The notes beneath the pieces are model-generated. The model was not told the origin of the DNA and searched no databases. It was given only the letters and a program-made list of their open reading frames with translations. A stretch of DNA of 37,899 nt. It comes from Promethearchaeota archaeon (GTDB lineage: Archaea > Asgardarchaeota > Lokiarchaeia > Sigyniarchaeales > SOKP01). Positions 5,972 through 37,899 of the stretch are shown in pieces. Location: NCBI GenBank assembly GCA_048938895.1, contig JBHLLU010000038.1:1-37899 (forward strand), in the 5' to 3' direction. The position numbers and the translations under genes were made by a program. Position 1 is the first letter of the stretch; each line of letters starts with the position of its first letter.

Positions 5972-7165
5972 TCACTTCTGATATTTATTCCAGTTTTCTT
6001 CGAGATTAGGATCCTGAAGTGTATTCATTAAATACTTAGCAAATTCTTCCCCTGTAGCTCCCGTATCTCTTCCGGTCATCTTTAATTTCTTTTCATAGGT
6101 TGCGCATATATCAAGAGCCATTTCAAGTTGTTTTGCTTTATCTACAAATCCTATATGGTTTAAAAGTAATGCAGCAGCCTTTATGATGCTAGAAGGGTCA
6201 GCATATTGAGCTCTGCCTTCTTCAACCATTCGAGGAGCTGAACCATGAATAGCTTCAAACATTGCGTATTCTTTACCTATATTTGCGCTTCCAGCAGTAC
6301 CAACTCCACCCTGTAGCTGAGCAGCTTCATCAGTAATGATGTCCCCATAAAGATTAGGGGCAACAAATACTTTAAAATCCTTTTGACGTGCAGGATCAAC
6401 GAGTTTAGCGGTTGCAATGTCAATATACCAGTCATCCCATTTAACTTGAGGATATTCTTTTGCAATTTCTTCTGCCATGGAGAGAAATCTGCCATCTGTA
6501 GCTTTTACGACATTTGCTTTCGTTACCACCGATACTCGATTAATTTTGTTTTTGGCTGCATAATCAAATGCTAAACGTATAATCCTGTCTGAACCCTGTT
6601 TTGTTATTACTTTGAAATCTATTGATAAATCATCAGAAACATTAATTCCTTTCGATCCTAACACATAAGCTCCTTCCGTATTTTCTCTGAAGAACATCCA
6701 ATCAATACCTAGCTCTGGTACTTTTACTGGGCGAACATTAGCAAATAAATCTAATTCACGCCTCATTGTAACATTAGCACTTTCGATATTTGGCCATTTA
6801 TCTCCTTTACGTGGCGTAGTTGTTGGGCCTTTTAATAAAACATGACACTTCTTAATTTCTTCTAAAACATCATCAGGAATAGCCTTCATTACTTTAGCTC
6901 TGTTTTCAATTGTCAAACCTTCAATAACTCTAAGTTCTACAGCACTACTATTCGACTCATCCTTAAGTAAAAATTCCAAAATTGTTTGAGCATGCTTTGT
7001 TATATATGGTCCGATTCCATCCCCACCAACGAGTCCTATAATAATAGGTTTGAGTTTAGAATAATCAGTCCAATCCGCGGCTTTTTTCATCTGTTCAACT
7101 CGTTCCAATTGTTCTCTAACAAGAGACTCAAAATGTTTTGTTGCTTTTTCTACTAAATCAGTCAT
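5972..7165 (-). CDS. icd: Isocitrate/isopropylmalate dehydrogenase family, probably isocitrate dehydrogenase
   Basis: GDGIGP, KGPTTTP, SANVTMRRELDLFANVRP (IDH-like S/N/R substrate residues), RENTEG, NLYGDIITD, EAIHGSAP. SD GAGGT. Confidence 0.75.
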   Translation of the reverse strand: MTDLVEKATKHFESLVREQLERVEQMKKAADWTDYSKLKPIIIGLVGGDGIGPYITKHAQTILEFLLKDESNSSAVELRVIEGLTIENRAKVMKAIPDDVLEEIKKCHVLLKGPTTTPRKGDKWPNIESANVTMRRELDLFANVRPVKVPELGIDWMFFRENTEGAYVLGSKGINVSDDLSIDFKVITKQGSDRIIRLAFDYAAKNKINRVSVVTKANVVKATDGRFLSMAEEIAKEYPQVKWDDWYIDIATAKLVDPARQKDFKVFVAPNLYGDIITDEAAQLQGGVGTAGSANIGKEYAMFEAIHGSAPRMVEEGRAQYADPSSIIKAAALLLNHIGFVDKAKQLEMALDICATYEKKLKMTGRDTGATGEEFAKYLMNTLQDPNLEENWNKYQK

Positions 7166-7330: not shown

Positions 7331-9682
7331 TCAAATTCGTTTATGTTTTGTTGGTGTTTTTAATCCTTCATGGATTAGTATTAAACTTAACAATAAAAGA
7401 AAGAGGAAGACTCCTGGCCACAGAGCCCAAAATTTTCCAAATGCTGATCTAGCCCAGTTACAACTAATTCCTAATTGAGGTATGGAGATATCAATTAATC
7501 CAAAAAAACCAAGTGTTTGATATAATATGATTCCAAATGCTACTTCTAAAGGAATGGATTTCAATATCATTTTAATCCGATTGATTAAGTTAGATTCACG
7601 TCTTATAGCATTAGCTATGATTCCAGCAAATACTACAGTTAAAAGAAGCCCCACAATTAATATACTAATAAATCGGGGTTTTAATGCATAAAAAAGGGTG
7701 TTTGCGACAGCGAGAAGCATTATTCCTGGAATTATCAAAAATATTATCAATGTTCCAATAATGCCATAATGGACATACCTATGATATCTACCTGCCATAT
7801 ATCCGAATATTGAACCAAATAGTAGTCCTATAATAGTAATGACGATACCAAATATAAGTGCATCTTGAATTCCATAGATGACTCGTGCAAGCACATCAAA
7901 TCCATATTTGGTTGTTCCAAAGGGATGACTATAACTTGGGGATTCGAAAGGATTATCAGGAGGAAAATCTGGTGGGACTATTTCATTTATACTATAAGAG
8001 GTAAAAAAATAAGGGAATATAGAAAGAATAATGAAAGACATCAATAGTGTCAATCCGATTATAACAAAAGGATTCTTTAATGAAGTTATTATATAATTTT
8101 TGAATTCATTTCTGAAATTCAACACTTCATTTTGTTCCATATTAATTTCTTGTTCAGAAAAATGTGATAGATTTTCATTGTTTAATTTATATTCAGTAAT
8201 TGTTAGTATTCCGCTAATTATACCCAATATACCGGCTATGATTGGAATAACAAACCCAAAACTTGGAGGATAAAACATGTTCCAATAGCTAGAAAAATAT
8301 TCCTTGAAATTTGAATAATATATAATTGGACTAATAAAAATTAGAAATCCACCAACAATACTTAATACTACACCCCCATCGTACATCTTATTATTTTTTG
8401 TTTTTAATATAGGTATTAAAAGTAAAATGATCCCTATAACCATTAATATAATTATAATAGTACCTAACATAAGGTAATTATAATCCAATGGACTAACAAA
8501 AAGTTCATTAACAAATCCAGAATCAGTTGATCCACCCCCACTACCTCGTACATAAAATCCCAAATACCAAAGAAAGGATATACCATCAGGATCTAAAAGA
8601 CCCATTGTAGGAGTTATTAACCCTATTACTGTTAGACCTATAGCTATTTTCGGTATTAAAAATTTCTTTTTATAAACAATTCTCTTAAAGTTTTTAGCTT
8701 TGTCAAAAACAAACTTCTTGAAGGAATTATATACTATAGGGATAATATTTGTTAAAAAGATGGTAAAAGAAAAAAGAATAATTATAAGATAAAGACAACC
8801 AATACTGAGAAATATATCTCCCAGATAAACAGATTGTATGAAACGGTATCCAAATCCAGTTCTATTAAAACATACTTCTAGAGTAATGACTAAGGCAAAA
8901 AATATTCCAAATAATTTAGCCGCTGTTAATGAATTTGAGACAAAAGCAGTTTCCTCTGTTTTACGTTCAATATGATTCTGAGTTTGTTTAATAACTATGG
9001 CTAATATCAAAAAGCTAAGTATAAATATCGGAAGAATTGCGTGTTCAATAATACTTCCAGCTAATTTCCAATTACCATTAATAATAGAATCAAATAACGG
9101 GAATCCTGTAATATCGGATAGTGGGTAATAATATGGATCAGCTATATACATTGCCGGGAATTCGAATCCTGGTAACAATGTACAAAATTGTATCAGCGTA
9201 GCTAAAAAAAATATAGGTATGGCAAAACCTATAATTGTAAATATCCGTATTATCAAACTTTGAGCGCTATTTCGTTTCTTTATCACACTTTTACCAAGCT
9301 TAATACCTAATAATCCAATTAATAATGGTACTATGAGTATTCCAATAGTTCTAGGAAAAGTTTTAGCTAATATATCAATCACAGGTTCCCCTTCAGCAAC
9401 AATAAAGGATTCTCCCCAGTTTCCCTTGAAAAAATTCAGAAAATATAAACCAAATTGAACATACCACGGATCATAATAACCAATTTGGCGTAAAATCTTT
9501 TCATAATATGTAGGATCATCAAATAATGCTGGGGAAACTATATTATGTGGAGCTGGGTTATGTATCCCATAGTAATAGAAAAAAAAGCCAATTACTAACC
9601 CAATAAATAAAACTACAATCCCATAAACTAAGGAATTAATTATAGTAAGACGTACTTTTCTCTGATAATCTGTGAAACTCAT
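7331..9682 (-). CDS. Fused DppB-like and DppC-like peptide/nickel ABC permease with an internal 4-TM domain
   Basis: DppB signatures (PWYVQF...GNWGES, FPRT, HAILP) and DppC signature (PSYSHPFGTTKYGFDVLARVIYG). Confidence 0.75.
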   Translation of the reverse strand: MSFTDYQRKVRLTIINSLVYGIVVLFIGLVIGFFFYYYGIHNPAPHNIVSPALFDDPTYYEKILRQIGYYDPWYVQFGLYFLNFFKGNWGESFIVAEGEPVIDILAKTFPRTIGILIVPLLIGLLGIKLGKSVIKKRNSAQSLIIRIFTIIGFAIPIFFLATLIQFCTLLPGFEFPAMYIADPYYYPLSDITGFPLFDSIINGNWKLAGSIIEHAILPIFILSFLILAIVIKQTQNHIERKTEETAFVSNSLTAAKLFGIFFALVITLEVCFNRTGFGYRFIQSVYLGDIFLSIGCLYLIIILFSFTIFLTNIIPIVYNSFKKFVFDKAKNFKRIVYKKKFLIPKIAIGLTVIGLITPTMGLLDPDGISFLWYLGFYVRGSGGGSTDSGFVNELFVSPLDYNYLMLGTIIIILMVIGIILLLIPILKTKNNKMYDGGVVLSIVGGFLIFISPIIYYSNFKEYFSSYWNMFYPPSFGFVIPIIAGILGIISGILTITEYKLNNENLSHFSEQEINMEQNEVLNFRNEFKNYIITSLKNPFVIIGLTLLMSFIILSIFPYFFTSYSINEIVPPDFPPDNPFESPSYSHPFGTTKYGFDVLARVIYGIQDALIFGIVITIIGLLFGSIFGYMAGRYHRYVHYGIIGTLIIFLIIPGIMLLAVANTLFYALKPRFISILIVGLLLTVVFAGIIANAIRRESNLINRIKMILKSIPLEVAFGIILYQTLGFFGLIDISIPQLGISCNWARSAFGKFWALWPGVFLFLLLLSLILIHEGLKTPTKHKRI

Positions 9683-9749: not shown

Positions 9750-11585
9750 TTATTCTGTAAATAAAATTTCATCATAAGGTTGTCGAAATAATCCTGCTCT
9801 TTGTCGCTTTTGGTCAAAGATATGCCCCATCATTCCGATTGATCTTCCCAAAACAAATAGGCCATTTAAAGCTTCACTATAAATTACATCCTCTATTTCC
9901 TCTTTAGTGTAGTCAAGATTTTCCAACAAATCTAAGAAGGTAATCCCAATACAACCATCAACATTCAGTATAAGATTGTTTCTCTTTGAGGTTGTTGCTT
10001 TTTCGACTTCTAATGCATAATCTAAGTGTGGATGTTTGGGAAAATTTTTTAATATGAATTCTTTTAATAGCACCACTCTCATGTCAGGATTCTGAACGGA
10101 CTTAACTCTGTGTCCGATTCCGGGAATGTTGATTTGAACAACATTTTTCATATAATTCATAAACTCTACAGGTGTCATTCCTTTTTGTACAGCTTCTCTA
10201 AAATATTTTGCTGCATCTGATACGGCTCCCCCAAATCGAGGTCCTATAGTAAGTATCCCACTAGCCAATGCCGACATTAAATCTTTTCCTGCGCGAGCCG
10301 TAATGATAGCATTATGAGCACCCGAAACAGCAGGACCATGATCTGCCGTTAATTTAATAACCATTTCGATATATTGCTGTGCAAACTCAGGTAATTCACG
10401 TTTAAACCAGAGTAACCCTATAACATAGCCAAGAGTTTTGTTCTCTCTTATTATTTTATCAAGAGGTACTTGATTATAAGTAACTATCTCCCCTCGATCA
10501 TCACTTATAGATACTATTACGTCTGTAGGACGTCTTACAACTCCTAATCTAGTTGCATCATTAAAGTTTAATGGTACTTTGGGAGGTTCAAAATCTTCAG
10601 CTGGTTTTATTTTGCCTTCCTGTACTAATTTATCAAAGGTTTTTCTAATTAATTTATCTAAATCTTCATATGAATCTGGTACAATAGCTCCTACTTTCCT
10701 TAAAGCTTCATTTTTTGCTTCGGCGGTTTCCATATCACTTCCTGCCATAGCACCGGCATGCCCGAATTGTAACCCTGCGGGTAATATCTTGGCACCTGTT
10801 CCCGCTACCCAAATAACTAAGGGTTTTGTTATTTTGCTTGATTTAATTGCATCAACAACAGCATACTCATCTTTTCCACCAATTTCTCCTAAAGCTACTA
10901 ACATTTTAATATTTGGATTAGCTTCATACCGTAATAGGTGATCGATTAATTGGGATCCTGGATATTTATCTCCCCCTATAGCAATTCCTTCATAGATCCC
11001 ATCAGTTGTTTGAGATATCATAAAATTCATTTCATTGGATAATCCACCCGATTTAGATACAAATCCTACTGATCCAGGTCGGTAAAGTTTTGATAAAACA
11101 ATATTTTCAATAGTTCCTGCGGAGTTTCCAATTTTAAATGCACCTGCTTTAATACCACCAACGGTGGCGGGACCGATAATAATTTTTTTTCTTTCATCTG
11201 CAATTTTGGTTAAATGTCTTGTTTGCCTTTCTGGCATACCCTCTGCTATGATCGCTACAGTTCTAATCGTATTAGTTTCTAGTGCTTCCTTAGTTGTAGG
11301 ATATGCTGATCGAAATGAGGCAAAATTCACCATGACATCAGCATCAGGATGGTTTTTAACAGCTAAATTGAGTGTTTTATATACTGGTACTACGATCTCA
11401 TTAGAACCCCAAAATACCTTATGGTATGCTACAGCTGCATCTTGAGTAGGTCGTATTACTGCAGCCACAGATGGTTTTTCCCTTTTGCAAATGTAGTCAA
11501 AATCAAGCATTCTTTGAATAGCATTTGCTTGAAATCCATATATTATTGCTTTTGTATTTTCATCAAATAAATCATAATCTTCCAT
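9750..11585 (-). CDS. aclA: ATP-citrate lyase alpha subunit (CoA-ligase domain plus citryl-CoA lyase domain)
   Basis: QRMLDFDY, GPATVGG, SKSGG, GGDKYPGS, phospho-His QFGHAGA, ADHGPAVSGAHN, GIGHRVKS, NLILNVDG. SD GGAGG. Confidence 0.95.
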   Translation of the reverse strand: MEDYDLFDENTKAIIYGFQANAIQRMLDFDYICKREKPSVAAVIRPTQDAAVAYHKVFWGSNEIVVPVYKTLNLAVKNHPDADVMVNFASFRSAYPTTKEALETNTIRTVAIIAEGMPERQTRHLTKIADERKKIIIGPATVGGIKAGAFKIGNSAGTIENIVLSKLYRPGSVGFVSKSGGLSNEMNFMISQTTDGIYEGIAIGGDKYPGSQLIDHLLRYEANPNIKMLVALGEIGGKDEYAVVDAIKSSKITKPLVIWVAGTGAKILPAGLQFGHAGAMAGSDMETAEAKNEALRKVGAIVPDSYEDLDKLIRKTFDKLVQEGKIKPAEDFEPPKVPLNFNDATRLGVVRRPTDVIVSISDDRGEIVTYNQVPLDKIIRENKTLGYVIGLLWFKRELPEFAQQYIEMVIKLTADHGPAVSGAHNAIITARAGKDLMSALASGILTIGPRFGGAVSDAAKYFREAVQKGMTPVEFMNYMKNVVQINIPGIGHRVKSVQNPDMRVVLLKEFILKNFPKHPHLDYALEVEKATTSKRNNLILNVDGCIGITFLDLLENLDYTKEEIEDVIYSEALNGLFVLGRSIGMMGHIFDQKRQRAGLFRQPYDEILFTE

Positions 11586-11603
11586 CTTTTTATCTCCTCC
11601 TTC

Positions 11604-12896
11604 TCAGGTTTTACCCCCTTCTGCTTTTTTTATTAATTCAACCACTCTTGTCATATGAGTATAACGATCATAAATTTCAATTGGAACTCCTGTTTCTTCA
11701 CCAACTTGTTTCATAAGTTCTAACCCCTGTTTTTCATTTGGACCTCCTCTGCGAACAAATATTTTAACATTTGCTTTCTTTAATTTGTCAACAGAATTTT
11801 TAATCGCACTTACTATTCCTGTAAATGTAGCTTTAACGTCTGTAAAATTAGCTATTCCACCTCCAATTATAAGATATTTTGGTCTCCCCTGAGGATCAGG
11901 GGTTTCTGTTATTAAATCAATAATTGTCTGAGCGTAAATTTCAGTATGCTCACGTGAAGGATTGCCACTATATTCTCCGTAATTTCCTAATTCTTTTCCA
12001 AATCCAAGATCAACGATTGTATCTGTATAAATAACAGAAGCTCCACCGCCTGCAACCATAGTCCATACACGCCCTTCTCTATTAATTATTGTTAATTTTA
12101 GAGAAGCACCAGTTTTTTCGTCTATTTCTTGAATTCTTGCTTCTTCTTCTGACATTGTTTGACCAAACCCACTTGGAAATTCTATAGGATTTTCTGGATT
12201 TCCCCAAGTATCCCCATGTAAGAACATAGCTGTGTCATCCAGACGAGCTTTCACATCCAAGGGTACAATCTCCTTTTTTTCAGTTATTGCAAAAGGATTA
12301 ATTTCCAAAAACGCAAAATCTTGATCAACAAATACTTGAAAAAGAGCTTTAATAAAAGGGATTAGTACATCTTTATATTCTCCCAAGTCTGGTAATTTTC
12401 CTTCTAGATCAAAAGAATTTATATCAGTTCCTAAAGGGAGGGGTATATGAATTACTTTGTCCCAGTTTTCCTCTACAAATATACCCCCTTCAAAACTAAA
12501 GTGAATTATATCATTTTCTCTATCAGAAGTAATAGAGACATAGTATTCCTTTTCATGAGGGATAAAAGGTTCAATGAGTAAGCGTTTCAATGCTCCTTTT
12601 ATATTTCCAATTTCACAAACCCTATCTAAATTATCAACACAAAATTGTTTCATTTCATCACAATTAGCGTCAAGTAAAAGTAAATTAGCTTTTCCTCTTT
12701 TCCCAAATAATTGGTCTGGTTTAACTACTACCTTTTCTGTCTCAATCCAAGGATTATCTTTTATTATTTTATCTAAATCTGTGTTGCAATCGGCAATAGC
12801 TAATTTATTATGGTATTTAAAATCAGGATAGTATTTTGGAAGTTCTCTTGCTAAAAGCATTTTAGCATCATATTCGTAAATATTTTTTTGCGCCAA
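11604..12896 (-). CDS. aclB: ATP-citrate lyase beta subunit (ATP-grasp plus citrate-binding domain)
   Basis: KPDQLFGKRGK, GRVWTMVAGGGASVIY, NYGEYSGNP, GGGIANFTDV, RRGGPN. TTG start. Confidence 0.95.
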   Translation of the reverse strand: MAQKNIYEYDAKMLLARELPKYYPDFKYHNKLAIADCNTDLDKIIKDNPWIETEKVVVKPDQLFGKRGKANLLLLDANCDEMKQFCVDNLDRVCEIGNIKGALKRLLIEPFIPHEKEYYVSITSDRENDIIHFSFEGGIFVEENWDKVIHIPLPLGTDINSFDLEGKLPDLGEYKDVLIPFIKALFQVFVDQDFAFLEINPFAITEKKEIVPLDVKARLDDTAMFLHGDTWGNPENPIEFPSGFGQTMSEEEARIQEIDEKTGASLKLTIINREGRVWTMVAGGGASVIYTDTIVDLGFGKELGNYGEYSGNPSREHTEIYAQTIIDLITETPDPQGRPKYLIIGGGIANFTDVKATFTGIVSAIKNSVDKLKKANVKIFVRRGGPNEKQGLELMKQVGEETGVPIEIYDRYTHMTRVVELIKKAEGGKT

Positions 12897-17859: not shown

Positions 17860-18729
17860 TTAAAGTAATTCCTTGATTAATTTTGGTACTTCCCATGGAG
17901 TATCAGCAATGAAAGAACCTGCTTCTTTAAGAGCTTTAATTTTACCTTGTGCTGTACCAAATTCACCCGAAATTATTGCTCCCGCATGACCCATTCGTTT
18001 ACCCTTAGGAGCACTTTTACCTGCAATATACGAAATTATCGGTTTTGATACATATTCTTTAATATATTCTGCAGTTTTTTCTTCCTCATCACTCCCAATT
18101 TCACCTATTAATACAATTAATTTGGTATTTTGTTCATTGGAGTAATATTCTACTGCTTCGACCATAGTTGTTCCTCTAACAGGATCACCTCCAATCCCTA
18201 TATAAGCAGAAACTCCAATCTCCGCATTTCCAATGGCTTTTGTAATTTCATAAGAAAGAGTTCCACTTTTGGAGATGATCGCCACATTTCCATAATGACA
18301 CATATCTCCCGGCATTATTCCTAATTTAATTTTATCTGGAATCATCATTCCTGGACAATTTGGACCTACGATGTGAAGATTTTGTATTAAAGTTAACTCT
18401 CTTAATTTAATCATATCAAATACAGGAATATTTTCAGATATTATACAAGTCATTTTTATGCCTGAAAGTAAACTTTCCTCAACTGCACTATATGAAAAAC
18501 GAGCAGGAACAAAAACAATACTTATATCACAGTTAGTGTTTTCCACAGCTTCTTCTACAGAATCAAATACAGGAATTTTATACACTACTTCTCCTCCTTT
18601 TTTAGGAGTAACTCCTGCTACTATATTAGTCCCATAATCTAACATTAAACGAGTGTGAAATTTTCCTTGGTTTCCAGTGATTCCTTGAACAACAACTTTG
18701 GATTTTTCACTTATGTACAATTTACTCAC
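17860..18729 (-). CDS. sucD: Succinyl-CoA ligase (ADP-forming) alpha subunit
   Basis: VQGITG, GVTPKKGG, GPNCPG, SKSGTL, GIGGDP, phospho-His RMGHAGA. GTG start overlaps the sucC stop. Confidence 0.92.
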   Translation of the reverse strand: MSKLYISEKSKVVVQGITGNQGKFHTRLMLDYGTNIVAGVTPKKGGEVVYKIPVFDSVEEAVENTNCDISIVFVPARFSYSAVEESLLSGIKMTCIISENIPVFDMIKLRELTLIQNLHIVGPNCPGMMIPDKIKLGIMPGDMCHYGNVAIISKSGTLSYEITKAIGNAEIGVSAYIGIGGDPVRGTTMVEAVEYYSNEQNTKLIVLIGEIGSDEEEKTAEYIKEYVSKPIISYIAGKSAPKGKRMGHAGAIISGEFGTAQGKIKALKEAGSFIADTPWEVPKLIKELL

Positions 18730-19846
18730 CTACAACCTCCTTTACTTTTTCAACAGCTTTAATTACGTCCTGAAATGCATTCACTCCAGATTCTTCAAGG
18801 AGAGCAATTCCTTCTTTTTCTCTTGTCCCTGTAAGTCTTATTACTAATGGTGGTGTATCTTTCAGATCCTTTAATGCTTGAATTATTGCTTCAGCGACAA
18901 TATCGCATCGGGTTATACCACCGAATATATTTACAAGGACACATTTAGGTTTCATTCCAAAAAGTAGTTCTAATGCTTTATATACTCGTTCTTTACTGGC
19001 ACCACCTCCTACATCCAAGAAATTTGCAGGTTTTAAACCTAATTCAGAAAGTACATCTAATAACGCCATAGTTAAACCTGCTCCATTAGCTAGTATTCCA
19101 ATATCACCATCCAATTCTACAAAAGAAAAGCCTGATTCTTTTGCCAATCTTTCTAATGGGGTTAACTTTTTACCTTGTAGTTCTTTAACAATTGGTTGTC
19201 GAAAAGCTGAATCGTCATCCAGGATCATCTTTCCATCAACCGCTTTTAACCCTATTGGAGTGAGAACTAAAGGATTAATCTCGACTAACTGAGCTTCAAG
19301 TTTAGTTGTTATCTTCCATAAATTGTATAATAATGCCTTTGCAGAAGCAGAATTATCTCCAATAAAGCCCAAATTGTTGATAACTTTATCGATAATTTGT
19401 TCAGTTAAAGCAGTAGTATAAGAAAATTTCTCTTTGATTATAGCTTCTGGATTGGTATTTGCGACTTCTTCTATATCAATCCCTCCTTGTTTGCTTGCAA
19501 TTATATAGAACTGCCCTTCTGACGCATCTAGAGCAATTGAACAGTAGTATTCATGCTGGATCTCAACTAATTCTTCTACAAGAATAGCTTGGACTTTAAA
19601 TCCACTTACTTCCCTTTGGAAGAATTCATGACATAAAGTAATTGCTTCCTCTTTAGATTGAGCAATTTTAATAAGTCCAGCTTTTTTTCTGCTACCGATT
19701 GCTATTTGAGATTTAATAATTGCTGGAAACTCAAACTGATCTACTTTTTCTTCTATACATTCTCCCTTTTCTATTACAATATTTTTTACTAAAGGAATGT
19801 TAAATTGACTGAAAATTTTCTTACTTTCATATTCAAGTAATCTAAT
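18722..19846 (-). CDS. sucC: Succinyl-CoA ligase beta subunit, full length 374 aa, ATT start
   Basis: Frame is open for 158 codons upstream of the track start: (I)RLLEYESKKIF...KSQIAIGSRKKAG...VEE...EYY...GGIDIEE, continuing to EINPL, NGAGL, NFLDVGGG, NIFGGITRCD. Confidence 0.9.
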   Translation of the reverse strand: MRLLEYESKKIFSQFNIPLVKNIVIEKGECIEEKVDQFEFPAIIKSQIAIGSRKKAGLIKIAQSKEEAITLCHEFFQREVSGFKVQAILVEELVEIQHEYYCSIALDASEGQFYIIASKQGGIDIEEVANTNPEAIIKEKFSYTTALTEQIIDKVINNLGFIGDNSASAKALLYNLWKITTKLEAQLVEINPLVLTPIGLKAVDGKMILDDDSAFRQPIVKELQGKKLTPLERLAKESGFSFVELDGDIGILANGAGLTMALLDVLSELGLKPANFLDVGGGASKERVYKALELLFGMKPKCVLVNIFGGITRCDIVAEAIIQALKDLKDTPPLVIRLTGTREKEGIALLEESGVNAFQDVIKAVEKVKEVVGE

Positions 19847-19964
19847 TTGTTATCCCTCTTTCCTTGTCAGTATAAAATTAATGCTCTATATCTTTTTGTT
19901 GAATTTAATTATACTTTAATATATGATAATGTGAAATAAATAATTACAAGTAAAATTTATTGAA

Positions 19965-21457: not shown

Positions 21458-22279
21458 TTAATTTCCTAATTCGTTGATTTTTAGAGGTGGGCGAGGTGTT
21501 GTTCTGAGATATTTCACAGCAGGATAACCGAGTGTAAAAGCCCCAAGTACATAACCTTTTATTCCTAAAATATTCATAATTTCTCTATTCATAGGAATTG
21601 CTATTTGAAGGCCACCTATCCAACATGTTCCAAGACCAAGAGTTTCAGCAGCGAGCATACCATAAGTTAATGCAATACCTGCATCATTACCGCGCAATCC
21701 TATCATTGTACCAATTTTTTCAACAGTTTCATAGTATAAAACAATTAAATGAGGTGCATTGAAAAAAACATTTCTTCCTCTAGATTTGAGAGATTTGAGT
21801 GCTTCATCTTCTGATTCAAAACCCCTATATCTATACATTGTTTTCACAATTGCATCACTCAATTCTTCGATTTTTTCAGGATCAGATATAATTAGATAAC
21901 GCCATAATCGGAGATTACCACCACTTGGAGCATATCTCATAGCCTTAAAGACCTTTTCTATTAATTCTTGTGGAACATTTTTAGATTTATAACGTCTAAT
22001 TGATCGTTTTGCGCGAATAAGTCTATAAAAATTGTCGTTGGTAATAATAGCTTCTGGAGAATCTATGCCTGGAAAGGATTCAACATCTTCTAAGTCCTCT
22101 GTGAGAATAGCATTTTCAGGACATATGGCTATACAATGACCACATACGTTACAAGCTGGAAGGGTTTCATTGAACACTACTTCTTTATTTTCATTGACTG
22201 AATAATAACCACTACCACACTCTTGGATACATTGCTTACAATTCGAACACTTTTCTTTATCAATACCAATAATTGACAT
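21458..22279 (-). CDS. Nitroreductase with N-terminal 2x[4Fe-4S] domain (paralog 1)
   Basis: CSNCKQCIQEC and CNVCGHCIAICP; KRSIRRY, APSGGN, LGLGTCWIG. Confidence 0.9.
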   Translation of the reverse strand: MSIIGIDKEKCSNCKQCIQECGSGYYSVNENKEVVFNETLPACNVCGHCIAICPENAILTEDLEDVESFPGIDSPEAIITNDNFYRLIRAKRSIRRYKSKNVPQELIEKVFKAMRYAPSGGNLRLWRYLIISDPEKIEELSDAIVKTMYRYRGFESEDEALKSLKSRGRNVFFNAPHLIVLYYETVEKIGTMIGLRGNDAGIALTYGMLAAETLGLGTCWIGGLQIAIPMNREIMNILGIKGYVLGAFTLGYPAVKYLRTTPRPPLKINELGN

Positions 22280-25061: not shown

Positions 25062-26810
25062 ATGATTGTATATGGTGCATCAAAAATTAACGATATCTCA
25101 ATAGTGCTTTGTGGAGCTGCGGGTCAAGGTATTCAAACTGTTGAAGCATTATTAACAAAAACATTAAAAAGAACAGGATATCATGTATTTGCAACTCGAG
25201 AATACATGTCACGTGTTCGAGGAGGAGTCAATTCTACTGAAATTAGAGTTTCATCTAAACCTGTACGAGCATATGTCGATCGAATTGACATTTTAATCCC
25301 ACTTAACGAAGCCGCACTCCCACATTTAAAAGAAAGAATATCCCCTGATACTTTAGTCATTGGTGAAAAACGCTACTTAGAAACTATTTCAGATATTAAA
25401 TTTGAAATATTAAGTATTCCCTTTACAGAACTTTCAAATGAAGTTGGGGGTGCTATATATGCAAACATAATTGCATTAGGGGTAATATTATGCATATTAA
25501 ACGCTGAAAGGACAATACTTTTAGATTTACTTTCAGAGAATTTCAAATCAAAAGGCCAAGAAATTATTAACAATAATATTAAGGCTGTCGATAAAGGTTA
25601 TGAGGTAGTCGAACAAAAATTAGCTTCAAGAATTGTAAATAAGAAACGATTTGAAATACCGAGAAATACAGATATAATAGATAATTATATATTAGATGGA
25701 ACTCAAGCGATAGCGTTGGGTGCTATTGCAGGAGGTTGTAATTTTGCTTGTTTTTATCCAATGGCACCTTCTACTGGTATTGGCACATTTTTAGCTCAAC
25801 ATGCTCTTGAATTCGATATGATTGTTGATCAAACAGAAGACGAGATCAGTGCTATTAATAAGACTCTAGGTGCTTCATATGCAGGAGCACGTTCGTTTGT
25901 CTCCACTTCTGGTGGTGGGTTCTCTCTCATGACAGAGGGAATAAGCCTTGCAGGTATGACAGAGTTACCAATAGTAATGGTTGTGGGACAAAGACCCGGA
26001 CCCGCAACTGGAATGCCCACCAGAACGTCTCAAGAAGATATTGAACTCGTGCTATATGCTGGTGCTGGGTGGTTTCCAAGAATTATTTTCTCACCAGGTA
26101 GCCTAGAGGATGCTTTTAAATTGACCCAAAAAGCATTTAACCTTACTCAAAAATATCATGTTCCTGTATTTATTCTAACAGATCAATACCTCGTTGATTC
26201 ATATTATAATATTAGTTCATTAGATTTAGATTCCTTAGAAATTATTAAAAACATTGTTGAAACTCACAAATATTATGAGAGATACCGATTTACAGATAAT
26301 GGTATTTCTCCACGAGGAATCCCCGGTTACGGTGAAGGATTGGTTGATGCAGACAGTCATACTCATGATGAATATGGTGCTATCACAGAGGATCCAATAA
26401 TAAGAAATAAAACAGTTGAAAAACGATTTAAAAAACTCGAGGTAATTAAAAAAGAAACCATACCTCCAGAATTTTATGGAGTTAAGAAACATAAATATCT
26501 TATAGTAAGTTGGGGCAGTAATTTCTATTTGATTAAAGAAGCTTTAGAAAGATTGGACCGGGATGATATTGGTTTCTTATTTTTTAAACAGATTTATCCC
26601 ATTCATGAATCTGCTCTTGATTATCTTACGAATGCGGAAATAAGGATATCAATTGAGCAAAATCCGACTGCACAATTTGCGAAACTATTAGAAAATGAAA
26701 CTCACATAAACATGAACCATAGGATTTTAAAATACAGTGGTTATATTTTCTCTGTCGAGGAAATTTTGGAACGATTGAAAAATATAATTGGTGGTGAGAA
26801 AGATAACTAA
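25062..26810 (+). CDS. korA: 2-oxoacid:ferredoxin oxidoreductase alpha subunit (gamma-alpha fusion)
   Basis: GAAGQGI, EYMSRVRGG, FYPMAPST, QTEDEISA, TSGGGF, QRPGPATG.PT. Confidence 0.9.
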   Translation: MIVYGASKINDISIVLCGAAGQGIQTVEALLTKTLKRTGYHVFATREYMSRVRGGVNSTEIRVSSKPVRAYVDRIDILIPLNEAALPHLKERISPDTLVIGEKRYLETISDIKFEILSIPFTELSNEVGGAIYANIIALGVILCILNAERTILLDLLSENFKSKGQEIINNNIKAVDKGYEVVEQKLASRIVNKKRFEIPRNTDIIDNYILDGTQAIALGAIAGGCNFACFYPMAPSTGIGTFLAQHALEFDMIVDQTEDEISAINKTLGASYAGARSFVSTSGGGFSLMTEGISLAGMTELPIVMVVGQRPGPATGMPTRTSQEDIELVLYAGAGWFPRIIFSPGSLEDAFKLTQKAFNLTQKYHVPVFILTDQYLVDSYYNISSLDLDSLEIIKNIVETHKYYERYRFTDNGISPRGIPGYGEGLVDADSHTHDEYGAITEDPIIRNKTVEKRFKKLEVIKKETIPPEFYGVKKHKYLIVSWGSNFYLIKEALERLDRDDIGFLFFKQIYPIHESALDYLTNAEIRISIEQNPTAQFAKLLENETHINMNHRILKYSGYIFSVEEILERLKNIIGGEKDN

Positions 26811-27663
26811 TAATTCGTTTGATTTGGAAGGAATTGAAATGCATTGGTGTCCTGGATGTGGAAACTTTAGTGCGATGAAAGTAATGAAAGAAACATTGAT
26901 TGAATTAAATATAAAACCAAAAGATTTCGTATTAGTTTCTGGAATCGGACAAGCGGGAAAATTTCCTCATTTTATGAAATCACAAAGCTATAATGGACTT
27001 CACGGGAGATATTTGTCAGCAGCATTGGGTATAAAAGCAGCAAATCCAAATCTTCATGTAATTGCTGTGAGTGGTGATGGATGTACATATAGTGAAGGAG
27101 GAAATCACTTTCTCCACACCATCCGGTATAATCCAGATATTGTCAATATTGTACATAATAATATGGTCTATGGGTTAACGAAGGGTCAAGCATCTCCTAC
27201 TAGTCAGTTAGGCTTTAAAACCAAAGTTCAGGTATTTGGGGTTATAAATGAACCATTTAATGCCGTAGCGGTGGCTATAGCATTGAATGCTTCTTTTGTT
27301 GCCAGAGCATTCGTAGGTGATATAGAAAAGTCCAAAGAGATTTTAAAAAGCGCTATAAACCATAAAGGATATGCTCTTATAGATCTACTATGTCCATGTG
27401 TTAGTTTTAATCGCGTTAATACCTTTCAATGGTACAAGGCAAATAGTTATTATATAGATAGTTCTCATAATCCACATGATCAAAAAGCCGCAATGGATTT
27501 GGCATTAGATACTAGTAAGTTTGCTTTAGGAATTCTATATCTAAATCTCAATAGGAGAATCTATAGTGAAAACGTTCGTATTTATAATAATGATAAAAGA
27601 CCATTATATCAGCGTGATTTAAACAAAAAAAAAATAGAGGACTTGTTAAACACTTTTCGGTAA
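26788..27663 (+). CDS. korB: 2-oxoacid:ferredoxin oxidoreductase beta subunit (TPP-binding); start uncertain between 26788 and 26803
   Basis: WCPGCGN, SGIGQ, LHGR, GDG...EGGNH, NNMVYGLTKGQASPT, PCVSFN. Confidence 0.9.
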   Translation: MVVRKITNNSFDLEGIEMHWCPGCGNFSAMKVMKETLIELNIKPKDFVLVSGIGQAGKFPHFMKSQSYNGLHGRYLSAALGIKAANPNLHVIAVSGDGCTYSEGGNHFLHTIRYNPDIVNIVHNNMVYGLTKGQASPTSQLGFKTKVQVFGVINEPFNAVAVAIALNASFVARAFVGDIEKSKEILKSAINHKGYALIDLLCPCVSFNRVNTFQWYKANSYYIDSSHNPHDQKAAMDLALDTSKFALGILYLNLNRRIYSENVRIYNNDKRPLYQRDLNKKKIEDLLNTFR

Positions 27664-27693: not shown

Positions 27694-29406
27694 ATGAAGA
27701 TAGAAGAATTTGATGTTGTGGTGGTTGGTGCTGGTCTCAGCGGATTAAGAGCGGGATTAGAATTATCATCAAGGTGGAATGTAGCAGTAATTAGTAAAGT
27801 CTATCCTGTTAGATCTCATTCTGGAGCAGCTCAAGGGGGTATCAATGCTGCATTAGGAAATTTAGCAGAGGCAAAAGAGGATACTCCAAAAAAGCATGCA
27901 TTTGACACAATCAAAGGTTCAGATTATCTAGCAGATCAAGACGTTGTAATGTTCATGTGTGAAGAAGCTCCTAAAATTGTGGTTGAATTTGAAAGTATGG
28001 GTGCTCCTTTTTCTCGATTAGAATCTGGATTAATTGCTCAACGTCCTTTTGGTGGTGCTGCGTTTCCACGTACTTGTTATGCGGGGGATAGAACAGGTCA
28101 TGCTTTACTTCATACGCTTAATGAACAATCAGTTCGTAAGGGTGTAACTTTCTTTGATGAATATTTTTTAATTGATCTTTTTTCAGTACAAGGAAAAATT
28201 GCAGGATTGATAGCTCTTGATATTGCCAAAGGAGAGCTTGTTTCATTTAGAGCACCTTATATCATTTTAGCAGCAGGAGGGTTTGGAAGGATATTCAAGC
28301 GTTCTACAAATGCAGTTATTAATACAGGGGATGGCGTAGGAGCTGCCTTTAGAGCGGGTGTACCTATGCAAGATGTTGAGTTTGTCCAATTTCATCCAAC
28401 AACCTTGTATGGGACTAATATTCTCATAACCGAAGGTGCTAGAGGTGAAGGTGGATATCTTTTAAATAAAAATAAAGAACGATTTATGATAAAAACTGCT
28501 CCAAAAGCCATGGAGCTTGCCCCACGAGATATGGTTGCACGAGCAATTGAAACTGAAGTTATTGAGGGTAGAGGTTTTGATAATGCTTATGTCAATCTAG
28601 ATCTTACCCATCTAGGAGCTGATAAAATAAATGAACGATTACCTGGGATCAAAGAGATTAGTATTTACTTTGCTGGGGTTGATCCCATTGAAGAACCAAT
28701 TCCTGTACAACCTGGACAACACTACTCAATGGGAGGAATTGGAACAAAATTTGATGGTGATTATGGTGAAACAGATTTAGATGGATTGTATACGATTGGT
28801 GAATGCTCTTGTTTATCAGTTCATGGTGCAAACCGATTAGGCGGAAATTCATTACTAGAAACAGCTGTATTTGGAAGATATATTGGAAGAAAATTGATAG
28901 AAAAAGGTTTGCCGTCTAAACCATCATTGAGTAAGATCCAAACTGCTGAAGAAGGTACACTCGAGAAGATCGAACAACTCCTTAAAAGTTGGGATACTAA
29001 TACGGGCAAGAAACCGGTAGAACTTAGGAATGAAATGGGTGAAACCCTAAATAAGAATGTTGGAGTCTATAGGAATGAAAAAGATCTTAAAAAAGCGAAC
29101 CAGACTCTTATCAAATTGCAGAGTGAATTTTTAAATGTTCATGTTCCAACTGAAGATAGAAAGTTTAATTTTGGATTAGTTCGCACACTAGAACTTCGGA
29201 GCATGATAGACATTGCAGAAGTCACTGCTTTCGCCTCGTTATGGAGAAAAGAGAGCAGGGGAGCTCATTTTCGCACAGATTATTCTAGCCGAAATGACAA
29301 TGATTATTTAGTACATTCAATGGTTTATAGAAGACAAAACAGGCTAGAAATTAAAACTAAACCCGTTAAATTAGGAATATTTGAAGTAAAAGAGAGGAAA
29401 TACTAA
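27694..29406 (+). CDS. sdhA: Succinate dehydrogenase/fumarate reductase flavoprotein subunit
   Basis: GAGLSG, RSHSGAAQGG (covalent FAD His), QFHPT, ELAPRD, HYSMGG, HGANRLGGNSL, ESRGAH. Confidence 0.93.
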   Translation: MKIEEFDVVVVGAGLSGLRAGLELSSRWNVAVISKVYPVRSHSGAAQGGINAALGNLAEAKEDTPKKHAFDTIKGSDYLADQDVVMFMCEEAPKIVVEFESMGAPFSRLESGLIAQRPFGGAAFPRTCYAGDRTGHALLHTLNEQSVRKGVTFFDEYFLIDLFSVQGKIAGLIALDIAKGELVSFRAPYIILAAGGFGRIFKRSTNAVINTGDGVGAAFRAGVPMQDVEFVQFHPTTLYGTNILITEGARGEGGYLLNKNKERFMIKTAPKAMELAPRDMVARAIETEVIEGRGFDNAYVNLDLTHLGADKINERLPGIKEISIYFAGVDPIEEPIPVQPGQHYSMGGIGTKFDGDYGETDLDGLYTIGECSCLSVHGANRLGGNSLLETAVFGRYIGRKLIEKGLPSKPSLSKIQTAEEGTLEKIEQLLKSWDTNTGKKPVELRNEMGETLNKNVGVYRNEKDLKKANQTLIKLQSEFLNVHVPTEDRKFNFGLVRTLELRSMIDIAEVTAFASLWRKESRGAHFRTDYSSRNDNDYLVHSMVYRRQNRLEIKTKPVKLGIFEVKERKY

Positions 29407-30173
29407 TGGTTAATATGCAGAAATTTTTGGTTTATAGAAATAATGGAGATGGAAATATTCGTTATGATAAATTTGAGGTTCCTTTAACAAAAGGTATGAG
29501 CATATTAGAAGCACTTTTTTATATACAGGATTATATCGATTCCTCTTTAGCATTTCGATACGCTTGTAGAGGTGCTATTTGTGGCTCTTGTGGGATGACA
29601 ATTGATAAAGTACCATTACTCGCATGTAGAACTCAGGTTTTAACTGTAAAGTCTTCAACGAAACCTGTTAATCTGCCTGAATTCAAATTAGGGGAATATC
29701 AAAATTGGAACTCCACAACCGAAATTTTGATTGAACCCTTACCTAATATGGCTGTATTGAAAGATCTAGTAGTCGATATGGAACCATTCTGGAAATTTTA
29801 TAGAGAAATTGAACCATTTTTCATAAAAGAATGGAATGATAAAGCTCCTGAATCTTCACAGTTTCCTAATCAAATGAAAAAAATTGAGCGCTTAGTTTAT
29901 TGTATTCTTTGTGGATTGTGTTGGGCCTGTCCAGTTAGTAAAATCAATCCAAATTATCTTGGACCAGCACAATTAGCTAAGGCTGATAGATTTGTAAGAG
30001 ATTCTAGAATTACAGACAAAAAACAGGAATCTATTCTTAGACGAGTATTAGAACATGACGCAGTTCCTGCATGTGAGAAGTATTTTGTATGTAATCGAGT
30101 TTGTCCTAAAGATGTTCTGCCCGGTATTGCAATAAAGGATATAAGAGAAAATTGGATGAGCAAAAAAGATTAA
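29406..30173 (+). CDS. sdhB: Succinate dehydrogenase/fumarate reductase Fe-S subunit
   Basis: CRGAICGSC..LAC (2Fe-2S), CILCGLCWACP, CEKYFVCNRVCP. TAATG overlap with sdhA. Confidence 0.9.
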   Translation: MVNMQKFLVYRNNGDGNIRYDKFEVPLTKGMSILEALFYIQDYIDSSLAFRYACRGAICGSCGMTIDKVPLLACRTQVLTVKSSTKPVNLPEFKLGEYQNWNSTTEILIEPLPNMAVLKDLVVDMEPFWKFYREIEPFFIKEWNDKAPESSQFPNQMKKIERLVYCILCGLCWACPVSKINPNYLGPAQLAKADRFVRDSRITDKKQESILRRVLEHDAVPACEKYFVCNRVCPKDVLPGIAIKDIRENWMSKKD

Positions 30174-33688: not shown

Positions 33689-35086
33689 TTGATCAAAATT
33701 TCTAAATATCGAATTGAGAAAGATATTTTAGGAGAAATTAAGGTACCTGACAGTGCATATTGGGGTATTAATACCCAACGAGCAATTGAAAACTTTCAAA
33801 TTAGTGGCATTACTTTCCCTAAAATTTTTATTTCTTCTTTAGCTGTATTAAAAAAAGCTACTACTTTAGCAAATATAGATTTGAATTTGATTGACGAGAA
33901 TATAGGGACTGCAATTATTAAAGCTGCAGAGGAAATATTTAAAGAAGGAAAATATTCTGATCAATTTCCAATTGATTTTTATCAAACTGGGAGTGGTACT
34001 CAGACGAATATGAATATGAATGAAGTGCTAGCAAATAGAGCTAATGAAATCTTAGGATTTCCTAAGGGGGAAAAAACTCCTGTACATCCAAATGATCATG
34101 TAAATAGATGTCAATCTTCTAACGATGTTATTCCAACTACTATGCATATTTCAGCACTCCTTCTCATAAATCAAAAATTATTTCCAGCTTTAAAAAGACT
34201 AGTTGAAGGATTAACATTAAAAATTGAGGAATTTAAAGAAGTTATCAAAGTAGGAAGAACTCATCTTCAAGATGCTGTTCCAATTCCCTTATCTTTAGAA
34301 TTTGAAGTATATAAAAAACAAATTATCACATGTGAAAACCGAATAAATAATGCTTGTAAAGAGCTTTATCAAATTCCTATTGGTGGAACCGCATTAGGAA
34401 CTGGATTAAATGCAAGTGACGGTTTTGCCCAATTAACTATTGATTACTTATCAAATATGACAGAATTACCTTTTGAGCATAACCCGGTTATGGCGGAAGG
34501 AATATCTTCGCATAATGTAATTTCTAACCTAAGTAGTTCTTTAAAAAATTTAGCATTATCTTTATTGAAAATGGCAAATGATATTAGATGGATGGGAAGT
34601 GGTCCAAGAGCAGGACTTATGGAATTAATTCTACCTAAAAATGAACCTGGATCCTCTATAATGCCCGGGAAAGTTAATCCTACTCAATCTGAATCATTAA
34701 TACAAGTATGCCTAAGAGTTATAGGAAATGACGCAATTATTACCTACTCAGAAGCTTATGGAAGTATTCTTGATTTAAATGTTTGTAAACCCTTGATGAT
34801 TTTCAGTCTTTTAGATTCTATAGAAATTATCAGTAATTCAATTAATTCTTTTATTGACCATTGCCTTTTAGACATAAAAGCTAACAGACAGCAAATCAAT
34901 TCTCAATTGGACAATTTGCTTATGTTAGTTACAAATCTCACTCCCATATTAGGGTATGATAAATGCTCAGCAATTGCTATTAAAGCCTATGATGAAAATA
35001 AGACAATTAAAGATGTTATTGAAGAAATGGGAATTGAGATAGGGGAAGACCTTGATGAAATTTTAGATCCAAAAAAGATGGTTTGA
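33689..35086 (+). CDS. fumC: Class II fumarate hydratase
   Basis: QTGSGTQTNMN, HPNDHVN..QSSND, GRTHLQDA, GSSIMPGKVNPTQ. Confidence 0.9.
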   Translation: MIKISKYRIEKDILGEIKVPDSAYWGINTQRAIENFQISGITFPKIFISSLAVLKKATTLANIDLNLIDENIGTAIIKAAEEIFKEGKYSDQFPIDFYQTGSGTQTNMNMNEVLANRANEILGFPKGEKTPVHPNDHVNRCQSSNDVIPTTMHISALLLINQKLFPALKRLVEGLTLKIEEFKEVIKVGRTHLQDAVPIPLSLEFEVYKKQIITCENRINNACKELYQIPIGGTALGTGLNASDGFAQLTIDYLSNMTELPFEHNPVMAEGISSHNVISNLSSSLKNLALSLLKMANDIRWMGSGPRAGLMELILPKNEPGSSIMPGKVNPTQSESLIQVCLRVIGNDAIITYSEAYGSILDLNVCKPLMIFSLLDSIEIISNSINSFIDHCLLDIKANRQQINSQLDNLLMLVTNLTPILGYDKCSAIAIKAYDENKTIKDVIEEMGIEIGEDLDEILDPKKMV

Positions 35087-37159: not shown

Positions 37160-37899
37160 GTGAATCGAGAATCAAAAGCTTGTGAAACTCCCGATACCTT
37201 CTTGTGTGAAGATTTCGAAGAAGAAGAACCACAGCTCTGTGAAATAGATAAGTCAAAAACTTATAAAGGGCTTGTTGGAATATATGTCGATGAAAGCTTA
37301 ATAACATACATCGATGGAATGAATGGAGAATTATATTATCGAGGTTTTCCTTTACATGATTTAGTAGATAAATCTTCATTTGAAGAAGTAGTATATCTAC
37401 TTATATATGGAAAACTTCCTACTAAGTCTGAATTTAGTGATTTTAGAGATATATTAATAAAAGAACGGAATATACCAGACAATATCTTAACGATTCTGAA
37501 GAGTTATCCAAGAAATACTACAAGAATTGAATTATTGAGAACATCAATTTCTGCATTATCACTTTATGACCCTGATGACTATGATTTTTCTGAAGAAGCT
37601 AATATTAGAAAAGGCTTAAGAATTATTGCGAAAATACCGACGGTCATAGCGTTTTCTCATCGAATTCAAACTAATCAACCATTGGTAGAACCTTCAGAAG
37701 ATCTATCGCATGCATGTAATTACTATTATATGATGACAGGGGGCGTTCCTAATAATAAGTTTACGCAATATTTCGATAAGATATTGATGTGTCATATGGA
37801 CCACTCTATTAATAGCAGTACGTTTTCTTGTAGAGTAACAGTATCAACTTTATCAGACATTTATAGTGGAATTACTAGTGCAATAGGGACATTAAGAGG
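37160..37899 (+). CDS. gltA: Citrate synthase / 2-methylcitrate synthase family, 3'-truncated, absent from the ORF track
   Basis: GTG start and open to the window end: KGLVGIYVDESLITYIDG..GELYYRG, SFEEVVYLLIYGKLP, IIAKIPT, CHMDHSINSSTF, STLSDIYSGITSAIGTLR. Confidence 0.88.
   Translation, partial: MNRESKACETPDTFLCEDFEEEEPQLCEIDKSKTYKGLVGIYVDESLITYIDGMNGELYYRGFPLHDLVDKSSFEEVVYLLIYGKLPTKSEFSDFRDILIKERNIPDNILTILKSYPRNTTRIELLRTSISALSLYDPDDYDFSEEANIRKGLRIIAKIPTVIAFSHRIQTNQPLVEPSEDLSHACNYYYMMTGGVPNNKFTQYFDKILMCHMDHSINSSTFSCRVTVSTLSDIYSGITSAIGTLR

Follow-up and report, generated by a model that had tools for sequence, protein, structure and literature searches.

The aclB-aclA locus

The 37,899-nucleotide stretch of DNA analyzed here (contig JBHLLU010000038.1, positions 1 to 37,899; hereafter, the window), with a G+C content of ∼32%, carries two adjacent minus-strand genes that are predicted to encode the subunits of a heteromeric ATP-citrate lyase (ACL), namely, aclB, for the small (beta) subunit, and, downstream of it, aclA, for the large (alpha) subunit (Table 1). 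The initial annotation had described an intact heteromeric ACL with all the expected motifs, made up of two open reading frames (ORFs) at 9750..12896, and both parts of this description are borne out, the exact span by the ORF call, and the intact enzyme by the Pfam matches, end-to-end structure alignments and motif positions given below. Both genes are full length and free of internal stops and frameshifts, as judged by direct reading of the ORFs and by the structure alignments. The TTG start of aclB is credible because residue 1 of AclB pairs with residue 1 of the Methanosaeta (Methanothrix) concilii subunit.

In the 18-nt spacer that separates the two genes, the Shine-Dalgarno-like sequence GAAGGAGGAG sits upstream of the aclA ATG, and aclB and aclA are presumably co-transcribed as a single operon. 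Between positions 9500 and 13200, a sigma-70 promoter scan returned 24 sites, compared with 16.5 +/- 3.7 in shuffled sequences, and 2 terminator-like sites were found, compared with 1.9 in shuffles; both scans apply a bacterial model to an archaeal-type contig and are uninformative. A scan for tRNA genes found none in the window.

Table 1. Features of the aclB-aclA locus and of the surrounding tricarboxylic acid (TCA) cycle genes (window positions; aa, amino acids)
Feature	Position	Strand	Basis
aclB, ACL small (beta) subunit, 430 aa, TTG start	11604..12896	-	ORF call; PF24948 and PF16114; alignment with 6hxi_A
aclA, ACL large (alpha) subunit, 611 aa, ATG start	9750..11585	-	ORF call; PF02629, PF00549, PF00285; alignment with 6hxi_B
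Spacer between aclB stop and aclA start, 18 nt, containing GAAGGAGGAG	11586..11603	-	Sequence read
IANFT codons, AclB residues 348-352	11841..11855	-	Motif position; aligned with IANFT of M. concilii and human ACLY
His276 codon in FGHAGA (motif at AclA 274), presumed phospho-histidine	10758..10760	-	Motif; invariant column, H741 of Nematostella ACLY
His492 codon in GIGHR (motif at AclA 489), lyase module	10110..10112	-	Motif; invariant column, H956 of Nematostella ACLY
Asp543 codon in NVDG (motif at AclA 541), presumed lyase Asp	9957..9959	-	Motif; invariant column, D1007 of Nematostella ACLY
Isocitrate/homoisocitrate dehydrogenase family gene	5972..7165	-	Pfam Iso_dh; NCBIfam NADP-isocitrate dehydrogenase, 263 bits, below cut-off
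Succinyl-CoA synthetase beta (18722-19846) and alpha (17860-18729)	17860..19846	-	NF004230, 374 bits; NF001913, 365 bits
2-oxoacid:acceptor (ferredoxin) oxidoreductase alpha and beta	25062..27663	+	TIGR03710, 614 bits; NF008821, 420 bits
Succinate dehydrogenase/fumarate reductase flavoprotein and iron-sulfur subunits (SdhA/B)	27694..30173	+	TIGR01812, 732 bits; TIGR00384, 203 bits
Class II fumarate hydratase/aspartase family	33689..35086	+	Pfam Lyase_1, FumaraseC_C; TIGR00979, 564 bits (cut-off 665)
Citrate synthase, N-terminal 246 aa, runs off the window	37160..37897	+	Pfam Citrate_synt; TIGR01800, 224 bits (partial)

Identity of the enzyme

Two ACL domains are recognized by Pfam in AclB, namely, PF24948, the ATP-grasp domain of ATP-citrate synthase, at 219 bits (cut-off 83), and PF16114, the citrate-binding domain of ACL, at 263 bits (cut-off 26.8). 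AclA contains, in this order, CoA_binding (PF02629), Ligase_CoA (PF00549), which is the domain with the presumed phospho-histidine, and a C-terminal Citrate_synt module (PF00285). The alignments with ACLs of solved structure extend over nearly the entire length of both proteins. Residues 2-609 of AclA align with residues 4-608 of M. concilii 6hxi_B (791 bits, E 5e-237), and residues 5-609 with residues 491-1093 of human ACLY (745 bits); likewise, residues 1-422 of AclB align with residues 1-416 of 6hxi_A (458 bits), and residues 31-420 with residues 30-416 of human ACLY (336 bits). The ACL of Chlorobium limicola (6hxj), the classical bacterial enzyme of the reductive TCA cycle, has the same reaction, two-subunit layout and domains but is far more distant (415 bits for AclA and 186 bits for AclB), and the structures of succinyl-coenzyme A (CoA) and citryl-CoA synthetases score at most 108 bits with AclA and at most 60 bits with AclB. 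NCBIfam has no ACL model, and its matches, to succinyl-CoA ligase and citryl-CoA lyase models, are all sub-threshold.

The columns of His276, His492 and Asp543 of AclA are invariant in an alignment of 15 sequences from animals, fungi, oomycetes, Asgard archaea and distant representatives, and the Asp of NVDG aligns with the sole position that differs (D to A) between the PDB entries 6hxi and 6znw. We take IANFT to be the citrate-binding loop of AclB, His276 of AclA to be the phospho-histidine, and His492 and Asp543 to be the residues involved in lyase catalysis. Under these assignments, the ATP-grasp domain of AclB would bind ATP, which would be used to phosphorylate His276 of AclA; the phosphoryl group would move from His276 to citrate held in the AclB citrate-binding domain, with its IANFT loop, to yield citryl phosphate; CoA would displace the phosphate to form citryl-CoA; and the C-terminal citrate-synthase-like module of AclA, with His492 and Asp543, would split citryl-CoA into acetyl-CoA and oxaloacetate.

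By domain content, catalytic residues, colinearity and gene order, the predicted products of aclB and aclA are members of the heteromeric AclA/AclB ATP-citrate lyases (EC 2.3.3.8). With the enzyme of M. concilii (6hxi and 6znw), they share the two-subunit, B-then-A layout, colinearity over the whole length and the catalytic motifs, and the identity to the GTDB Methanosaeta locus (L075) is 56.6% for AclA and 53.6% for AclB. Human and other fused ACLY (6hxh and 6poe) have the same domain order and catalytic residues as the window proteins but are single polypeptides in which a linker connects the two parts, whereas the window encodes two proteins. The split ACLA/ACLB of plants and algae are also two-subunit enzymes, and their large subunit (Arabidopsis ACLB, P0428) is 55% identical to the AclA of the window. 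In Hydrogenobacter thermophilus, the same chemistry is distributed between two enzymes composed of homologous modules, citryl-CoA synthetase (6hxq) and citryl-CoA lyase (6hxp); unlike this arrangement, the lyase module encoded in the window is fused to the alpha subunit, and the scores with 6hxq and 6hxp are only 88, 60 and 48 bits.

The initial annotation had also pointed to the match between the gene order and the domain order of fused ACLY. Of the 80 related prokaryotic GTDB loci that were fetched, 72 contain the two genes, and all 72 have aclB upstream of aclA, with both on one strand and unfused. Thus, the B-then-A order is present in the window but is uninformative with regard to eukaryotes because it is common to all these prokaryotic loci. 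Altogether, aclB-aclA is very probably a two-gene operon for a functional heteromeric ACL of the eukaryote-like type common among anaerobic archaea, and an ordinary member of a known Asgard clade.

Relatives among the Asgard archaea

In the search with AclA, 8000 candidates were scored, yielding 7915 proteins at E <=1e-20; the figures that follow refer to the 120 listed. The window's own protein included, 117 of these 120 are 79-100% identical to AclA and align over the full length; in the 116 listed clusters besides its own, the identity is 79-92%, with the nearest representative differing at ∼8% of the positions. The remaining three are 1026-1040 aa long and 54-56% identical. NCBI source names are available for 15 of the listed rows, and 14 of these are Asgard metagenome-assembled genomes (MAGs; Promethearchaeota, Lokiarchaeota, Thorarchaeota and Hodarchaeota, with the labels taken as deposited), the 15th being LCGC14_1440600, from a marine sediment metagenome, with an 89% identical AclA. 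Some of the database sources label the relatives as 'succinyl-CoA synthetase alpha subunit' or 'citrate/2-methylcitrate synthase'. There is no difference of substance between the deposited ACLs of Asgard archaea (Lokiarchaeia/Promethearchaeota) and that of the window.

The presence of ACL in Lokiarchaeia and most Asgard phyla has been published (10.1101/385732; 10.1101/2022.10.25.513756; PMC11976288). The preprint of Bulzu et al. (10.1101/385732) describes, in Lokiarchaeia, a complete TCA cycle with isocitrate dehydrogenase, a 2-oxoglutarate:ferredoxin oxidoreductase and ACL, which is interpreted as a reductive TCA cycle, and Asgard genomes without sdhC/D. In the bioRxiv preprint 10.1101/2022.10.25.513756, eukaryotic and Asgard ACL are reported not to form a monophyletic group. 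In Santana-Molina et al. 2025 (PMC11976288), various Asgardarchaeota are reported to carry ACL, and the eukaryotic ACLA/B branch with DPANN, whereas ACLY branches with Thermoplasmatota-E3; inheritance from the host is raised there as a speculative possibility. Thus, the enzyme itself, the fact that Asgard archaea have it, the metabolic setting and the lack of a sister relation to the eukaryotic ACL were all known before and are reproduced here.

Phylogenetic position

The comparison set consisted of fused eukaryotic ACLY, split large subunits from plants, algae and protists (among the latter, P0245, a split-type ACLB), representatives of 50%-identity clusters and GTDB loci. The GTDB loci were ranked against Nematostella ACLY, which produced at least 600 pattern matches, of which 580 were confirmed and the best 80 kept. 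The labels of these 80 loci are Thermoplasmata/Thermoplasmatales, Bathyarchaeota, Methanotrichaceae, Micrarchaeota and several bacterial groups, and most belong to Thermoplasmatota, Bathyarchaeia and Methanotrichaceae, so that the notion of ACL being uncommon in archaea, adopted in the initial annotation, is out of date. In the library of 50%-identity representatives, the top matches are at most 55% identical and the Asgard and eukaryotic ACLs are not separated, the clusters presumably being merged.

Sequence identities already place the eukaryotic enzymes closer to other prokaryotes than to Asgard archaea. The AclA of the window is 54-58% identical to eukaryotic ACL, with the same range for the C-terminal part of fused ACLY. 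The A-part of Nematostella ACLY is 68.1% identical to the Thermoplasmatales row L001, a value comparable to those for other eukaryotic supergroups (66-69%), compared with 54-57% for the Asgard rows, the lowest among the eukaryote-like prokaryotic rows. Similarly, Arabidopsis ACLB is 65.2% identical to the Micrarchaeota row L062 vs 55-57% for the Asgard rows.

The trees agree with these comparisons. In a FastTree phylogeny of 151 AclA rows, the 11 Asgard rows form a group (support 100) inside an 83-row prokaryotic clade, and the fused eukaryotes are found elsewhere. For a more careful analysis, 84 rows were hand-picked from the 151 and 9 named split-type eukaryotes taken together, and the removal of 20 near-redundant sequences left 64 rows (6 Asgard, 7 fused eukaryotes, 9 split-type, 7 outgroup and 35 others; the omitted rows are mostly long-branched); the tree was built with IQ-TREE from 609 columns under LG+C20+F+G4 with posterior mean site frequencies (PMSF), and the support is given as ultrafast bootstrap/Shimodaira-Hasegawa-like approximate likelihood ratio (SH-aLRT). 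In this tree, the Asgard clade that includes the window (6 rows, 100/100) is apart from both eukaryotic clades, each of which has prokaryotic partners of its own. The fused ACLY form a clade (100/99) with L001 (Thermoplasmatales), with the Chloroflexaceae-labelled L032 together with P0241, and with P0246, and rows labelled Thermoplasmatota and Bathyarchaeota surround this clade over several supported nodes. The split-type eukaryotes join L062, from the DPANN group Micrarchaeota (100/99), and together these are sister to a 47-row clade; hence, as judged from the large subunit, the split plant-type ACL with Micrarchaeota is the sister group of all other eukaryote-like ACLs. The Methanosaeta ACL, in the AclA and concatenated trees alike, branches separately within the eukaryote-like prokaryotes rather than as the sister of the Asgard clade.

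Approximately unbiased (AU) tests, with the groups set by the sister hypothesis and not taken from the tree, reject the union of the Asgard clade with the fused ACLY clade (AclA; difference in log-likelihood 102.95, p 9.1e-06) and with the split plant-type clade (large subunit; difference in log-likelihood 71.28, p 2.9e-04). When AclB and AclA were concatenated (47 rows and 1036 columns; a quick search with SH-aLRT support), the window fell in a 23-row prokaryotic clade (SH-aLRT 100) with Methanotrichaceae-, Thermoplasmata- and bacterial-labelled loci, away from which fused ACLY joins L032 (SH-aLRT 99). Accordingly, the proposal of the initial annotation that the Asgard copy is sister to the eukaryotic enzyme is not borne out, with separate clades recovered and both forms of the grouping rejected. 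The concatenated phylogeny that it recommended, run with part of the proposed taxon set, reveals no affinity with eukaryotes; as for the counter-scenario, nesting in a bacterial or methanogen clade by recent transfer, the sequence does nest, at a distance from eukaryotes, in a clade of both archaea and bacteria but bears no sign of a recent transfer. The Asgard clade is thus very probably neither the sister nor the ancestor of fused ACLY or of the split plant-type ACL, as far as can be judged from the sequences compared.

Two further features of the sampled loci are apparent. Bacterial-labelled MAG loci (Syntrophaceae, Syntrophomonadaceae, Trueperaceae and Desulfobacterales; L004, L013, L022, L034, L078 and others) lie close to Thermoplasmatota- and Bathyarchaeota-labelled ones within the eukaryote-like group, which implies frequent inter-domain transfer or binning errors. 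There is also a class of tandem-duplicated AclA, of ∼1000-1065 aa, in which a complete AclA is followed by a second copy of residues ∼148-609 (P0067, P0102, P0107 and P0241); in two Chloroflexaceae-labelled loci with the duplicated gene (L032, 11317-14511, and L054, 11441-14578), aclB is located directly upstream. In the AclA trees, the first copy of these duplicated proteins groups beside fused eukaryotic ACLY.

Gene neighborhood and physiological role

The remaining TCA cycle genes of the window are listed in Table 1; among the scanned ORFs of the window, there is no match to the aconitase or malate dehydrogenase families. The sharing of the same 38 kb by TCA cycle genes and aclB-aclA would fit a role in a reductive, branched or bidirectional TCA cycle, and, judging by the neighboring genes, the most likely function of the ACL is to complete a reductive or bidirectional cycle or else to convert amino-acid-derived citrate to acetyl-CoA. 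The gene set of the window matches the picture published for Lokiarchaeia, where, according to Bulzu et al. (10.1101/385732), the same association of isocitrate dehydrogenase, 2-oxoacid:ferredoxin oxidoreductase and a full TCA cycle is found and sdhC/D are lacking. Between 27694 and 31279, no recognizable membrane-anchor genes follow SdhA/SdhB, the next gene being a radical SAM/SPASM gene on the opposite strand, and this anchor-less arrangement fits that part of the same report which concerns Asgard genomes without sdhC/D.

Several of the neighbors have peculiarities of their own. The gene for the succinyl-CoA synthetase beta subunit has no ATG, GTG or TTG at the expected N-terminus, so that the default ORF comprises only 216 aa, whereas the stop-to-stop frame (18722-19849, minus strand) is 375 aa long and aligns with the SucC model starting at model position 2; an ATT codon at 19846-19844, downstream of AAGAGGG, is likely to be the start. 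Between the isocitrate dehydrogenase family gene and aclA (7331-9682, minus strand), a 783-aa membrane protein is encoded that has no Pfam match but shows weak NCBIfam similarity to Opp/Nik permease B in the N-terminal part and to permease C in the C-terminal part, which suggests a fused two-permease component of an ABC transporter. Two adjoining paralogues at 21458-22279 and 22471-23289 (minus strand; 273 and 272 aa) share an architecture in which a 4Fe-4S dicluster domain at the N-terminus is accompanied by a nitroreductase domain.

ACL can in principle catalyze its reaction in either direction, and ATP-forming synthesis of citrate by this enzyme has been reported from Desulfobacter postgatei. 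It is conceivable, albeit unlikely, that the ACL of the window runs mainly in this direction, making citrate from acetyl-CoA and oxaloacetate with the formation of ATP, as an energy-conserving step of an oxidative cycle; apart from the reversibility, this would be compatible with the neighboring cycle enzymes, including SdhA/B and succinyl-CoA synthetase, which can work either way. However, the window also encodes a citrate synthase of the conventional kind, which leaves no need for ACL to act as one and makes reverse running less likely. The ferredoxin-dependent 2-oxoacid oxidoreductase and the Lokiarchaeia interpretation given in 10.1101/385732 likewise indicate reductive use, and the sequence itself holds nothing that distinguishes the direction.

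Alternative explanations and the origin of eukaryotic ACL

The relationship that would be of the greatest interest, with the Asgard ACL being the closest prokaryotic relative of the eukaryotic cytosolic enzyme, passed on by the archaeal host, appears very unlikely. In its favor, ACL is found across Asgard-labelled MAGs, the enzyme is eukaryote-like, as seen from the far higher score with human ACLY than with Chlorobium (745 vs 415 bits for AclA), the identity between AclA and eukaryotic ACL reaches the 54-58% noted above, and inheritance from the host is mentioned as a speculative possibility in Santana-Molina et al. 2025 (PMC11976288). These points are outweighed by the outcome of both AU tests, by the well-supported prokaryotic partners that each of the two eukaryotic clades has elsewhere and by the identity to Nematostella ACLY, which is up to 68% in other eukaryote-like prokaryotes vs 54-57% for the Asgard AclA; furthermore, two published trees (PMC11976288; 10.1101/2022.10.25.513756) disagree with such a relationship. 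As a candidate, the Asgard copy as sister of the eukaryotic cytosolic ACL is rejected for AclA by the tree, AU tests and identities, with which the concatenated tree agrees. A variant that seems equally improbable holds that the Asgard clade represents the enzyme that the archaeal host of eukaryogenesis had by vertical descent and that one or both of the eukaryotic forms came from an unsampled Asgard relative of this clade, in which case the affinities with Thermoplasmatota, Chloroflexota and DPANN observed at present would reflect later transfers out of early eukaryotes or artefacts of the model.

The interpretation preferred here, that of an ordinary Asgard ACL of the eukaryote-like type, unrelated as sister or ancestor to the eukaryotic enzymes, has to be weighed against a number of considerations that count against it. 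Within the 47-row clade (95/98) of the 64-row AclA tree, the Asgard clade emerges from a polytomy, into which the pair L057 and L078, sister to the Asgard clade at an SH-aLRT of only 88 in the quick tree, also falls. In the trees, the Asgard rows are all members of a single clade, with identities to the window of at least 79%, and other Asgard ACL types are outside the sample; the window is the single Asgard row of the concatenated tree, from which the split-type eukaryotes are absent; and long-branched cluster representatives served as outgroups, the named Chlorobi, Campylobacterota and Nitrospira of the proposed taxon set not being included. Among the best 80 of the 580 confirmed loci ranked against Nematostella ACLY, none is from Asgard archaea, which by itself is weak evidence. 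The window would most simply be an Asgard contig, on the basis of the AclA relatives alone, and the mechanistic steps outlined for its ACL are extrapolated from homology to the solved ACLs. Finally, the direction of the flux is not readable from the sequence, given also the citrate synthase gene in the same window. The limits of the sampling in the trees do not restore a sister relation between Asgard archaea and eukaryotes for the copy in the window.

The least probable explanation, scarcely tenable, is that the pair encodes a citryl-CoA synthetase/lyase that has diverged or a paralogue of succinyl-CoA synthetase, or else consists of decaying pseudogenes, as might be surmised from the exclusively sub-threshold NCBIfam matches and from the names given to the relatives in several sources, but this is contradicted by the ACL-specific Pfam domains far above the cut-offs, by scores with solved ACLs that are 4-8 times those with citryl-CoA synthetase (6hxq, 88 and 60 bits) and succinyl-CoA synthetase, by the fusion of the lyase module to the large subunit, as in ACL, by the intact frames with all catalytic residues retained and by the distinct, genuine succinyl-CoA synthetase pair at 17860-19846.

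Implications

If the Asgard ACL were sister to ACLY, the supply of cytosolic acetyl-CoA for lipid synthesis and histone acetylation would be traceable to the archaeal host, and if it had been inherited from the host in the manner considered above, an ACL-based cytosolic acetyl-CoA supply in such a TCA gene setting would be older than mitochondria. The clade to which the window belongs is apparently not that ancestor and so provides no new lever on eukaryogenesis. Although expected, an intact aclBA operon in a compact TCA cycle neighborhood is useful for the reconstruction of a Lokiarchaeia-like metabolism, in which it may take part in a reductive or bidirectional TCA cycle.

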